Source: an uncultured beta proteobacterium
GTDB lineage: Bacteria > Pseudomonadota > Gammaproteobacteria > Burkholderiales > SG8-41
Direction: 5' to 3'
DNA length: 64,000 nt
Assembly (NCBI GenBank): GCA_963808765.1
Contig: CAWEHH010000030.1
Span: 302,896-366,895 of the forward strand
In this document: piece by piece, positions 13,447 through 18,495 of the stretch
How positions within the stretch are numbered: the first letter of the stretch is position 1
How the letters are laid out: each line of letters begins with the position of its first letter
The notes under the pieces: model-generated
What the model was told of the DNA's origin: nothing
What the model saw: the letters and a program-made list of their open reading frames with translations, nothing else
The model's database searches: none
Program-made: the position numbers and the translations under genes

Positions 13447-14700
13447 ATCCTTACGACTATCGAGCGAGGCGAGCTGCACGTCGAAGAGGTGCCGCTTTCG
13501 CGCATCGCCGCCGAGCTCGGCACGCCGTGCTACGTCTATTCGCGCGCGGCCCTCACGGATGCCTTCACGAGCTTCGACGCCGCTTTCGCCGGCGCGATCC
13601 ACCTCGTCTGTTACGCGGTGAAGGCGAACTCCAACCTCGCGGTGCTCGACCTCTTCGCACGGCTGGGCAGCGGCTTCGACATCGTGTCGGGCGGCGAGCT
13701 GCAGCGCGTGCTCGCCGCAGGCGGCGACCCGGCGAAAGTCGTCTTTTCGGGCGTCGGCAAGTCCTCCGAAGAGATCCGCCTGGCGCTTGAAGGCCGGCAT
13801 ACTGTGCTTCAACGTCGAATCGGAAGCGAGCTCACGCGAATCGATCGCGTCGCGGGCGAGCTGGGCAAGCGCGCGCCGGTCAGCCTGCGCGTGAACCCGG
13901 ACGTCGATCGCCGGCACGCATCCTTACATCGCGACCGGTCTCAAGCAGAACAAGTTCGGCATCGCGTATACCGAGGCAGCCGCCCTTTACGCGCGGGCGG
14001 CCGCACGCTCGAACACGTGCGGATCGAGGCATCGACTGCCATATCGGCTCGCAGCTCACCGACATCGCGCCGATCGCCGAGGCGCTGCGGCAGATCGCCG
14101 AGCTCGTGGCACGGCTCGAAGCGGACGGCATCGAGCTCGCGCACATCGACGTCGGCGGCGGCCTCGGCATCCGCTACACAGGCGAGACGCCCCCCGACGT
14201 CGCGGGAGTACGCGCGGGCGGTCATGAATGCGTTTCCCGATCCACGGCACAAGCTCTCTGTTCGAGCCGGGCGCGGCTGCTCACCGGCAATGCCGGGCGT
14301 CCTCCTGACCCGCATCGAGTACCTCAAGCGAGGACGAAGACCGCAACTTCGCCATCGTCGACGCGGCCATGAACGACCTCATGAGGCCCGCCCTGTACGA
14401 TGCGTGGCACGAGGTGCTGCCGGTGCGGGAGGGCGACGCAACCGGGACCTACGACATCGTCGGTCCGGTGTGCGAGACCGGAGACTTCCTCGCGCAGGGA
14501 CGCGCTCTGCCCGCCCGGGAAGGCGATCTCCTCGCGATCATGTCGGCGGGCGCATACGGCATGAGCATGGCGTCGAACTACAACACGCCGCCCGCGCGCC
14601 GCCGAAGTGATGGTCGATGGAGACCGCATCCATCGTCGTGAGCGAGCGCGAAGAGCTGTAGCCGATCTCATCGCTCGCGAGCGGCGGCTGCCTCTCGTGA
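13443..14700 (+). CDS. lysA: Diaminopimelate decarboxylase (several apparent frameshifts)
   Basis: [51 protein letters not shown]. Confidence 0.95.
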
Positions 14701-14854
14701 GCGTGACGAGTGATGAGTGAGTAGCGAATGACGTGCATGATACGATTCGATCACGTCATCGCTTCATCATTTCTCACTCGTTCATCGCATTCGAAGTGTT
14801 GCGATCAAACACACAAATCGATATTCCATCGTCAAACAGCATTTGACAAAGGTG

Positions 14855-14884
14855 TTGCTTTTTTTTTGAGCTGTAGCATAGAAT
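14855..14884 (+). promoter_or_regulatory. Candidate sigma70 promoter for the K/A mini-gene
   Basis: TTGCTT-N18-TAGAAT in an AT-rich tract; a TTGACA also lies at 14843. Confidence 0.5.
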
Positions 14885-14929
14885 TGGCGCACCACGCGCG
14901 GTTTTTCCGAAATTTTTTTCGGGAGAACG

Positions 14930-15013
14930 ATGGAAGAGACGACTGCTAACAACGTTCGAAAAGTCGTGCGATGGGAGTGCGGAGCCAACCAGTCGCACGT
15001 GATGCATGCCTAG
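14930..15013 (+). other. Structured leader, possibly a 27-aa uORF (MEETTANNVRKVVRWECGANQSHVMHA)
   Basis: GGGAG 4 nt upstream of ATG 14930; stems ACGACT/AGTCGT and GTGCG/CGCAC. Confidence 0.35.
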
Positions 15014-15035
15014 GTTAACTTTAAAGGAGACTACA

Positions 15036-15098
15036 ATGGCAGCGAAGAAAAAAGCTAAGAAAAAAGCAGCGAAGAAAAAAGCAGCGAAGAAGAAGTAG
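15036..15098 (+). CDS. 20-aa Lys/Ala polycationic peptide MAAKKKAKKKAAKKKAAKKK (histone H1-tail-like); below the ORF-track cutoff
   Basis: RBS AAAGGAG 6 nt before ATG; only Met, Ala and Lys codons, with synonymous variation; TAG TAG double stop; downstream hairpin. Confidence 0.75.
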   Translation: MAAKKKAKKKAAKKKAAKKK

Positions 15099-15104
15099 TA
15101 GTCA

Positions 15105-15139
15105 GTAAAGCGGGGGCTGGGTAACCCCCGGCCTCCCGC
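15105..15139. terminator. GC hairpin between the convergent mini-gene and anti-sigma gene
   Basis: GCGGGGGCTGGG-taacc-CCCGGCCTCCCGC, followed by TTTA on the minus strand. Confidence 0.6.
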
Positions 15140-15222
15140 TCCCCCTCCTCCGTCTGTTGTCCCTTTCGTCCGCCAGTCGCTCGTTCAGCAGTACCTTCGC
15201 GGAAGCCGCGCCGTTCATCTTC

Positions 15223-15990
15223 TCAGGGATTGAGATGCTGGTACACCGCCGTCGCGACGCGCAGCAGATCCTCTTTCCTGATCTCGCCCGAAAGCGCATA
15301 GCCGAGGCCGCGGTCGATCCAGTAGAAGACCCGCACGTTGCCTTCCTGCGCGAAGCGGAACGCCGTCTCCTGGTTGTGCTCCCGGTTGGTCCGCACGTAC
15401 AGCGTCAGCCGCTGGCCCTGCGCATCCTGGTACATGAACTGCGCCACCGGCGCCGTCCTCGCCGGGCAGCAGCCGGCCACCGACCAGACGCGTAACCCCG
15501 CGATCGAGATGCGGGATCTTGAGCGGCGTGCCGAGGCGCTTGGAAAGCCATGCCGACGAGATGCGGCCTCCTGGTCCGCCGCCACCTCCACCGGATGCCG
15601 GACCTCCGGGCGTGTATACGGCGTGGGCGACGGCGGCCCGCTGCGCCCATGACAGGAGCGGTCGGCGCGCTTGTCGGCGCGGCTTGCAGTTCGTGCACAT
15701 GCCAGCCGGCGATGCCGCCGAGCGCGAACCAGGCGAGCGCCGCAGCGAGCCGCAGGCCACGCCGCATGGCGCAGCGTTGCCGGCTGAAGCGCGCCGGCAC
15801 CGGCTCGTCGAGCACGGAATCGAACTGCGCGCGGTCGAGCGCATCGTCGTTACGCCGGTAGGCGGCAAGCCGCGCGGCGTCCTCGGGATGCGCCGCCAGA
15901 TACGCTTCGACCTCGGCGCGCCGCTCGGGTCGGCAGCTCGCCGTCGAGCCACGCGTGCAGATCGGCTTCGGTAATCGAGTGTCTGCTCAT
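15223..15990 (-). CDS. Transmembrane anti-sigma factor, PrtR-like (apparent frameshifts)
   Basis: ITEADLHAWLDGEL; AAVAHAVYTP; WLSKRLG; GGRLLPG; QFMYQDAQGQRLTLY; FYWID..GYALSG. Confidence 0.85.
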
Positions 15991-16577: not shown

Positions 16578-16695
16578 TAGAATCACCCCATCATCGGTAA
16601 GCGGGGCTGCGGAGCAGCGGGCCCCGCGAACGACGCATTTCGGCGTCAGTCAGTATTTGCATCAGTATGTACCAGGCCTCGAGCAGAACGTGCGG
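16578..16695 (-). repeat. Family A repeat unit with terminal motif
   Basis: TAGAATCACCCC...CCCCGCGAACG.CGCATT.CGGCGTCAGTCAGTATT...ATGTACCAGGCCTCGAGCAGAAC, matching the reverse complement of the 42306 unit. Confidence 0.9.
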
Positions 16696-17040
16696 GGCCT
16701 CGCCGCCCTACGGACGAGGAAAACCAAGGTTTTCCTCCGTAACCTCCTTTCACGGGGGCGGCGCTTGCCTTCGGCTCGGGCCTCGCCGCCCTACGGAACA
16801 GAGGAAAACCAAGGTTTTCCTCCGTAACCTCCTTTCACGGGGGCGGCGCTTGCCTTCGGCTCGGGCCTCGCCGCCCTACAGCAACAGAGGAAAACCAAGG
16901 TTTTCCTCCGTAACCTCCTTTCACGGGGGCGGCGCTTGCCTTCGGCTCGGGCCTCGCCGCCCTACGGAACAGAGGAAAACCAAGGTTTTCCTCCGTAACC
17001 TCCTTTCCTTTGGCTGCGTGTCGGGTAGCAAGGCCGACAC
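16696..17040 (+). repeat. Family B tandem array: four 85-86 bp units plus terminal GTGTCGG..CCGACAC hairpin
   Basis: Palindrome GAGGAAAACC-AA-GGTTTTCCTC at 16716, 16801, 16887 and 16972, with near-identical sequence in between. Confidence 0.95.
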
Positions 17041-17057
17041 GGTGCTACCGCTCGGCG

Positions 17058-18495
17058 TCATATCAGAAACAGGGTAGCAAGCCCGAGGAAAATAAAAAAG
17101 CCGCCGCTGTCGGTGATGGCCGTGATCAGCACGCTCGAGCCCAGCGCGGGGTCCCGGCCGAGCTTTTCCATGAGCAGCGGAATCGAGACCCCCATTACGG
17201 CGGCGAGCAGGAGATTCAGCAGCATCGCGGCGGTCATCACCACGCCCAGCTCCCAGTTCTTGTAGATGAGGAACGCAAAAAGGCCAACGACGGTCCCCCA
17301 GATGAAGCCGTTCAGGACGCTCACCCCAATTTCCTTCATGAAGAGCTTGCGGAAGTTCTCGCGGGTGATCTGCCCCAGCGCGAGCGCACGAACGATCATC
17401 GTGATGGTCTGGTTGCCCGAGTTGCCCCCGATGCCCGCGACGATCGGCATCAGCGCGGCGAGCGCAACGAGCTGAGCGATCGAGTGCTCGAAGAGCCCGA
17501 TCACGCGCGAGGCGATGAAGGCGGTGACGAGATTCACGGCGAGCCACAGTCCAACGGTTCCGCACGCTTTTCCATACCGAGGCAAAGAGATCCTCGTCCT
17601 CCCGCAAGCCCCCGGCGGACAGCATGTCGAAATCCTGCGACGCGCGGATATAGTCGACGACCGCGTTCACCGTCACGCGGCCCACCAGCCGCCCATCGTC
17701 ATCCACCACGGGAGCGGACACGAGGTCGTAGCGTTCGAAGGCCGTGGAGGCTTCCTGAGCGTCCTCCCATGGATTGAACTGGGCGAACTCGCGGAGCATG
17801 AGCTCGCCCACGAACGCCTCCGGCGAGCTCACGAGCAGCCGATTCACGGGCAGCAGGCCTTTCAGGTGCGCGTCGCGATCCACCACGAAAAGCTGATCGG
17901 TATGGTCCGGCATATCGTCGAGCCGGCGCAGATATCGCAGCACGACCTCGACCGTGACATCCGCGCGCACCTCCACCATGTCGAAGTCCATGATCGCGCC
18001 GACCGAGTCTTCAGGGTAGGACATCGCCGAGCGGAGCTGCTCGCGCTCCTCCACCGACAGCGACTTGAAGACGTCCTGGATGACCTCCCGCGGCAAGTCC
18101 GGCGCGAGATCGGCGATCTCGTCGGTGTCGAGCTGCTCGGTCGCGGCGACGAGCTCGTCTTCGTCCATGCTCGCGATGAGCGACTCGCGCACGGCATCGG
18201 AGACTTCGAGCAGGATCTCGCCGTCGCGCTCGGCTTTCACGAGATCCCATACGACGAGCCGCTCATCCAGCGGGAGCGCTTCGAGGACGTAAGCGACATC
18301 GGCTGGATGCAGCCGATCGAGCTCGGGCTGAAGCGCTTTCAGGTTGCGCGTGCGCAGCGCGTCTTCCACGCGCTCGCGTGCTGGCGACTCGTGGCCCGCG
18401 AAGAGATCCTCCTCCAGCTTCAGACGGCGCATGAGCTCCGTCACCTGCTGCAGCAGTTGCTCTCTGGAGTGGGTTGCTTCTGCGCGCTGTTCCAT
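17058..18495 (-). CDS. mgtE: Magnesium transporter (apparent frameshift near 17550)
   Basis: LHPADVAYVLE, CBS pair, PIVAGIGGNSGNQT, DPALGSSVLITAITD. Confidence 0.95.

Follow-up and report, generated by a model that had tools for sequence, protein, structure and literature searches.

Does the AT-rich gap that follows lysA in this window, the whole 64,000-nucleotide stretch of DNA that was analyzed, hold a genuine gene for a protein of only 20 residues, and what could a peptide made almost entirely of lysine and alanine do? A first-pass annotation had read the gap as a stand-alone transcription unit for a polycationic micro-protein that gene callers miss, and had suggested a protamine-like condensing role or a lysine-related one.

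The micro-gene and its orthologues

Promoter, leader, ribosome binding site, ORF, double TAG, and hairpin are all present in the sequence as that annotation had claimed, and all lie on the plus strand. A conserved upstream promoter block (14843 to 14860) includes the −35-like hexamer TTGCTT (14855 to 14860) and retains TGTTGC[AT] in at least 90% of 33 orthologous loci. An 18-nt spacer separates it from the −10 hexamer TAGAAT (14879 to 14884), with which a GC-rich discriminator-like stretch forms a second element (14879 to 14891). The structured 5' leader of 144 nt (14892 to 15035) carries the Shine-Dalgarno (SD) sequence AAAGGAG (15023 to 15029) 6 nt 5' of the ATG. The ORF, MAAKKKAKKKAAKKKAAKKK with its TAG at 15096 to 15098 (15036 to 15098), has 20 codons, 12 for Lys and 7 for Ala; the peptide is 60% lysine and has a mass of 2184.8 Da, or 2053.6 Da minus Met, the removal of which is expected before Ala. 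The second TAG (15099 to 15101) is not conserved among orthologous loci. The GC-rich terminator-like hairpin beyond it (15109 to 15140; −26.3 kcal/mol) has no U-tail here and a U-rich tail in many relatives, and is probably common to the micro-gene and the convergent gene. A consensus scanner called neither promoter nor terminator at the locus (the −35 hexamer has 3 of 6 matches, and the U-tail is absent in this genome). A sigma54 promoter was rejected by eye, the GG-GC spacing being wrong.

The gap is indeed AT rich, with a GC content of 39 to 51% over 14700 to 15099 versus 60 to 78% in most flanking bins. The flanking gene names held in part. NCBIfam names the upstream neighbor lysA, which is frameshifted in the assembly, and also an ECF sigma factor gene further on, on the minus strand, which the convergent gene follows; the label “anti-sigma” for the convergent gene drew no family match and is presumptive, coming from position. 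Two repeats lie nearby: an inverted-repeat-like spacer with GTGA...TCAC units after lysA (14700 to 14790) and, upstream of the ECF sigma gene (16667 to 17077), a near-tandem repeat, perhaps a REP-like element, with RKTKVFLRNLLSRGRRLPSARASPP repeated in translation.

Among 34,578 ATG-started frames of 10 to 30 aa in the genome, 762 of them with an SD-like motif, the ORF is the only one that combines at least 40% Lys with an SD, which argues against a chance frame. A 30-aa version from an upstream start at 15006 was rejected: only 15 of 34 orthologues have an open frame across the upstream extension, so that the ATG at 15036 is taken as the start. The claim that gene callers miss the ORF agrees with an exact look-up in a collection of 15 billion proteins, in which this sequence was absent and 0 of 10 sequences were present, a weak sign of non-annotation since the collection may leave out very short proteins.

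A DNA search over 61 genomes gave a match in 34 of 36 family members, and the unit follows lysA in 32 of the 36 sampled family genomes. By excised loci, the ORF is present in all 12 genomes of the genus and in 20 of 24 other family genomes, plus one found later. All 34 family loci keep the ATG, GGAG 6 to 7 nt upstream, the stop, a hairpin 3' of the stop, and a TAGA[AC]T box 109 to 198 nt upstream of the ORF. Upstream lies lysA in 33 of the 34, the last being truncated where its contig stops; in at least 26 of them the downstream gene is convergent. Orthologues are 14 to 23 aa long (20 aa in 21 of 34), and the identical 20-aa peptide is present in many independent assemblies. Four family genomes are without the ORF. 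Three of these are unassembled at lysA, which stops at a contig end in G030 and was not found in G018 and G034; in the fourth, G026, lysA abuts the convergent gene, which indicates that the whole unit was lost there.

Selection on the ORF acts at the protein level. Across 19 colinear orthologues, pN/pS is 0.058 (mean pS, 0.30; mean pN, 0.017), and 13 variant codons are synonymous versus 5 nonsynonymous on 11:46 sites (P = 1.6e-6, with kin not independent). The changes are thus largely, and not exclusively, synonymous (13 of 18 variant codons versus 19% expected), and variable columns comprise nine third, four second, and one first codon position. Start-to-start and stop-to-stop lengths vary by whole codons, and leader lengths are spread over the three frames (13, 11, and 10). 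The slippery sequence A_AAA_AAG occurs once versus 25.5 times expected by codon shuffles in 28 family coding sequences, and 14 times versus 29.9 in 87 coding sequences from GTDB; A-runs of ≥8 occur 0 versus 17.4 and 2 versus 19.3 times, respectively. Kinship of the sequences inflates both the selection and the A-run statistics, and A-run avoidance could instead act at the DNA level. E. coli genes show an A_AAA_AAG bias in the same direction in Table 1 of PMC4363877. Protein-level selection rather than a microsatellite, as first proposed, fits the low pN/pS, the whole-codon indels, and the slippery-codon avoidance, and the ORF is very probably a translated gene. The 34 family peptides (613 residues) contain 387 K, 208 A, 10 V, 4 G, 2 S, 1 R, and 1 T, with no acidic residues and no Pro.

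Transcription and the structured leader

The micro-gene is transcribed in close relatives in soil. Small shares of the stretch are contained in 24 sequencing runs, 21 of them recorded as RNA. Eight RNA runs from eight studies (soil metatranscriptomes) were examined; all consist of contigs of relatives at about 85 to 95% identity, which carry neither strand nor level, and all eight cover the unit, leader and ORF included. The runs were picked for containing this stretch and some may be oligo-dT enriched, so contig depth cannot rank expression. In four high-resolution runs, depth is restricted to 14879 to 15110 and is zero over 14763 to 14878 and from 15111 on, except for a 3.6-deep contig at about 14705 to 14733 in run X12. 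The bin 14791 to 14897 has depths of 0, 0, 6.8, and 1.4 in the first four runs versus 69, 9651, 20, and 66250 in the next bin. In the high-resolution runs the promoter is uncovered by RNA contigs though as conserved as the leader; uncovered flanks in such runs are a weak hint only.

Contigs start at 14892 to 14901 with adapter remnants, whose joins at 14892, 14899, and 14901 lie 8 to 17 nt 3' of the −10 box; adapter orientation, which differs between runs (two in each direction), does not reveal the strand. Loose poly(A) ends at 15053 (21 contigs in X7) point to plus-strand RNA that was primed or tailed within the A-rich ORF. Oligo-dT capture of that ORF may account for the very high depths in X2, X5, and X7; the random-primed and rRNA-depleted runs X20 and X21 also cover leader and ORF. 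No contig in the eight runs joins lysA to the unit, and with its own promoter and RNA contigs restricted to it, the unit stands alone as described.

A covarying, structured leader is new, beyond the account of the first-pass annotation. In an alignment of 23 sequences, the 5' end pairs in a long-range helix, and the predicted fold further contains an inner stem, another hairpin, and, close to the SD, a weak stem; 96% of alignment cells are paired, and double-sided changes occur in 12 of the 29 pairs. Covariation exceeds all 500 shuffles and all slid controls, a comparison favored by the structure having been derived from the same sequences. A leader-only model matches 14892 to 15038 as a single copy in this genome and found 10 of the 12 family loci held out from it, missing L031 and L032. 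Two Betaproteobacteria loci in GTDB also matched, and among 93 sources matches occur only in Betaproteobacteria/Burkholderiales, with nothing in other phyla. Among 118 genomes from other families of the order, the model matched one, at a locus that follows lysA, has the same promoter, and carries a 16-aa Lys/Ser/Gly ORF; this ORF is missed by the K/A pattern described below and is an out-of-sample success of the model. Rfam gave no gathering-score match within 14600 to 15300 (best E value, 1.4), and over 20 loci of other lineages only a tRNA matched.

In relaxed form the promoter occurs eight times in the genome: here, before rplM, rplU, rpsO, guaB, atpI, and tRNA-Ser, and once in a repeat. 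This company hints at growth-linked, stringent-type control, with the limit that the pattern was derived from this very promoter and may merely select strong sigma70 promoters.

Lysine-rich micro-proteins across bacteria

The breadth of the class is likewise new. A scan pattern of SD, ATG, K/A codons, KK, and stop, which fixes the first eight and last two codons, matched 7 of 7 family genomes versus 2 of 293 others in the order (one small ORF and one SWIB-protein tail); the scan controls gave no matches. In GTDB the pattern found at least 120 loci, among them 91 with 92 closed ORFs of 12 to 24 aa (82 distinct). The matches listed span more than 15 phyla or classes, including Acidobacteriota, Gemmatimonadota, Verrucomicrobiota, Planctomycetota, Bdellovibrionota, Nitrospirota, Alphaproteobacteria, Steroidobacteraceae, Eisenbacteria, Omnitrophota, Binatia, Dormibacterota, Methylomirabilia, Sumerlaeota, and Brevinema. 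Of the 120 listed loci, 92 have the terminal triplet in frame, where a third would be expected, and a strong hairpin lies 3' of the ORF in 68 of 89 listed loci versus 3 of 88 control windows. The 92 listed peptides are 61% K and 31% A, with a net charge of +8 to +14; at positions left free by the pattern, 513 of 854 residues are K, 231 A, 5 R, and 3 D, and spacers are also Ser, Gly, Thr, Pro, or Val. Lysine codon choice in the listed peptides tracks local GC (rho = 0.61).

Occurrence under the strict pattern is patchy: at least 7 of 81 and at least 4 of 61 genomes in two phyla, at least 1 of 121 in Alphaproteobacteria, and at least 17, at least 13, and at least 5 of 41 in three families, counts that include the center genome and some matches unchecked for length, one of the 7 resting on the unpublished G366. 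Lengths form a continuum up to K/A proteins of 39 to 129 aa, one of which weakly matches HC2 (E = 6e-4, below the cut-off). At 55 loci outside the family (100 of 116 frames scanned; 16 from redundant loci and L109 left out), neighbors are constant within lineages and different between lineages, and neither lysA nor a ribosomal gene is among the 72 Pfam-named neighbors; these loci also hold no contextual pointer to chromatin. The unrelated contexts across phyla make the lysA link a local one. Convergence across phyla is possible.

Several loci have features of their own. At L058, L079, L089, and related Steroidobacteraceae loci, the micro-gene has an EVE-domain gene on one side and rpiA on the other and lies downstream of a 5-FTHF cyclo-ligase gene, and in Binatia-like and Eisenbacteria loci (L068, L082, L098, L100, and L129) a sigma54-activator gene is directly upstream. 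Two pattern matches per genome occur at L076 and in G341, G344, G663, G666, and G675; the two copies at L076 are 400 nt apart, each with its own hairpin. A stand-alone SWIB-domain protein starts with a K/A tail near-identical in style to the micro-protein at L172 (G000:C30) and L041, and such a tail is a possible source of the ORF, or a case of convergence. Actinomycete matches (L106 and L139) have Lys clusters separated by Asp and may belong to another class. Among 120 viral-collection loci (IMG/VR; L179 to L297), 52 have closed frames of ≤30 aa (29 distinct), mostly Lys/Asn/Gly-rich, 12 to 24 aa long, and with an SD, on AT-rich contigs and often directly 5' of another start codon; these may be DNA-condensing core peptides of phages and are distinct from the K/A class.

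Candidate function and rival explanations

What is conserved is charge alone, namely clustered Lys on a chain that is short and flexible and comes from a dedicated strong unit. Nonspecific binding to polyanions accounts for this better than does a fitted pocket, a sensor, or a helix that acts on membranes. The reading as an amphipathic antimicrobial helix was rejected, as Lys is spread evenly round the helix (moment, 0.08). The micro-protein is probably an H1-tail-like polycation that binds nucleic acids or polyphosphate nonspecifically. Any polycation binds DNA in vitro. Condensation of DNA is on record for the K/A tails of Hc1/Hc2, and BpH1, a dispensable protein, is expressed in exponential growth (PMC2848022). 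KPAA tails bind DNA, RNA, and polyphosphate granules (PMC11894788; PMC12818456), Hc2 and PhaF bind RNA, and AlgP positions polyphosphate granules (PMC11894788, PMC12818456, PMC2848022).

In the proposed mechanism, a sigma70-type promoter with a GC-rich discriminator, presumably growth controlled, would yield an RNA of about 250 nt, the ends of which are seen in relatives. The paired leader, a structure shown by covariation, would stabilize this RNA and may carry feedback control. The strong SD and the Lys codons, which selection seems to have kept free of slippage, would permit high-level translation. By analogy with Hc1/Hc2, AlgP, and PhaF tails, Lys clusters would bind phosphate backbones while spacer identity and length stay free, and a disordered polycation of 19 to 20 residues would neutralize and compact DNA, RNA, and polyphosphate, probably in growing cells. 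The unit would be accessory, one relative having lost it entirely at this locus. A bolder version is tentative and rather doubtful: a free oligolysine of 12 to 24 residues in many phyla, made from a very abundant stable mRNA, that serves as a gene-encoded polyamine and major nucleoid/RNA counter-ion, controls itself by binding its own leader, is missed by gene callers, HMM searches, and trypsin proteomics, and represents the minimal living form of an H1 tail.

The nearest known systems are the Lys-rich proteins Hc1/Hc2 of Chlamydia and the Hc2-like proteins of Bordetella (BpH1), Burkholderia, and Ralstonia (PF07382; NF038053), which share pentamer repeats, Ala spacers, and the absence of acidic residues. 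Repeat-number variation is also shared, whereas the Hc2-like proteins given in PMC2848022 have 149 to 237 aa versus 20 aa here. The micro-protein has three Lys per pentamer versus two basic residues and, unlike them, no terminal conserved domain and no HMM match: genome-wide searches with PF07382 and NF038053 gave no match at the locus, the peptide falling below curated HMM cut-offs, and the genome's NF038053-like (Burkholderiales H1-like) gene is a separate locus on contig C35. The KPAA tails of AlgP/PhaF (Pseudomonas) and the C-terminal tail of linker histone H1 are likewise disordered K/A polycations, with binding by the micro-protein predicted; those tails are Pro-rich and sit on folded domains, whereas the micro-protein would be a tail alone, with no Pro in the family and no second domain. 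Protamines, Coxiella ScvA, E. coli Tpr, and adenovirus mu are tiny basic peptides (<35 residues) that condense nucleic acids, mostly Arg-rich and tied to dormant or virion states. Size and strong basicity are common to both, but the micro-protein is Lys-only behind a housekeeping-type promoter, and with Arg nearly absent (5 of 854 pattern-free residues in the listed GTDB peptides and 1 of 613 in the family) “protamine-like” gives way to H1-tail-like. It would work like an H1 tail, yet as a minimal form that is not a member of PF07382 or NF038053.

Searches of Pfam, NCBIfam, and PDB, a weak test for a short low-complexity query, gave no family or chain for the 20-aa peptide and nothing for four sister peptides of 21 to 22 aa; PDB was blank for an 82-aa version. 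ESM Atlas returned 30 matches without a common Pfam family, the top three hypothetical proteins of 31 to 39 aa (score, 0.95); in the nearest cluster with a family, 17% of members are HC2 (score, 0.84), which is no more than a lead. A literature search, including by peptide motifs, found no paper on this class, most subscription papers and smORF catalogue supplements being outside its scope.

Bacterial chromatin inventories rest on annotated, trypsin-visible proteins, and a 2-kDa oligolysine is below gene-caller limits, is removed by the composition filters of HMM searches, and leaves nothing after trypsin digestion. Should it be made at the level suggested by promoter and RNA, common lineages of soil and water (Burkholderiales, Acidobacteriota, Gemmatimonadota, Steroidobacteraceae, Verrucomicrobiota, Nitrospirota, and Bdellovibrionota) would contain an abundant polycation that the inventories lack. 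The H1-tail-like reading, if true, would add an overlooked part to bacterial chromatin and provide a clean natural test of an H1 tail acting alone. Cultured carriers of the class exist, such as the Vineibacter terrae strain of L147 with a peptide of 22 aa, the class is not unique to this window, and the peptide is open to synthesis.

The main rival, an unlikely one, places the peptide in a cavity of rRNA, as an accessory protein of the ribosome or one associated with it. Small basic ribosomal proteins such as bTHX, bS22, and eL41 have a fixed length and conserved positions. The micro-protein resembles them in size, charge, and patchy distribution, its RNA seems abundant, and its promoter motif recurs before rplM, rplU, rpsO, and a tRNA, six of the seven other occurrences being at growth or housekeeping genes. 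Unlike them, it varies freely in length (12 to 24 aa) and spacers; no position other than Lys is invariant, Arg and aromatic residues are almost absent, and the searches above gave no family match. Ribosomal genes are missing among the named neighbors outside the family, and G026 lost the unit cleanly.

A still less probable reading gives the RNA the leading part: its stable structured leader would act as regulatory RNA or sensor, and translating the Lys-rich ORF would only tune it or signal the supply of tRNA-Lys. The leader covaries, is kept with the promoter across two families, and its contigs are the deepest part in some RNA runs. However, the leader model matched only Betaproteobacteria/Burkholderiales loci among the 93 sources whereas peptides of this type turn up in many phyla, the choice of codons tracks GC while amino acids are conserved, and the Rfam searches yielded no family.

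A specific polyphosphate-granule organizer or counter-ion has a precedent in AlgP (PMC11894788) and a suggestive case in L065, where an 18-aa acidobacterial member lies between the genes for polyphosphate kinase (ppk1) and Ppx/GppA (ppx). This context occurs at only 1 of 55 loci, however, and the peptide is without a second domain for granule tethering, which leaves such specialization improbable.

The lysine sink, sensor, or attenuator tied to lysA that was first suggested fares worse and is very unlikely: 12 of 20 codons are Lys, and lysA is upstream in the family and in G078, but the ORF lies downstream of lysA with its own promoter, RNA contigs do not join the two, and lysA is not among the 72 named neighbors elsewhere. 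A ribosome-mediated attenuator leader peptide was ruled out by the convergent, not co-directional, gene after the terminator in the window and in most family loci, which leaves nothing to attenuate.

The error-prone assembly meant that the ORF needed confirmation from outside, and a microsatellite or a long-read artifact such as a collapsed H1-like repeat is hardly credible despite many frameshifts and long poly(A) runs, given the identical peptide in independent assemblies, synonymous variation among orthologues of 14 to 23 aa, RNA contigs that pass through ORF and stop, and the real H1-like gene on C35. The poly(A) runs, of 310 and 717 nt, lie on another contig (G000:C26:26072-27135) and are probably a long-read assembly artifact.
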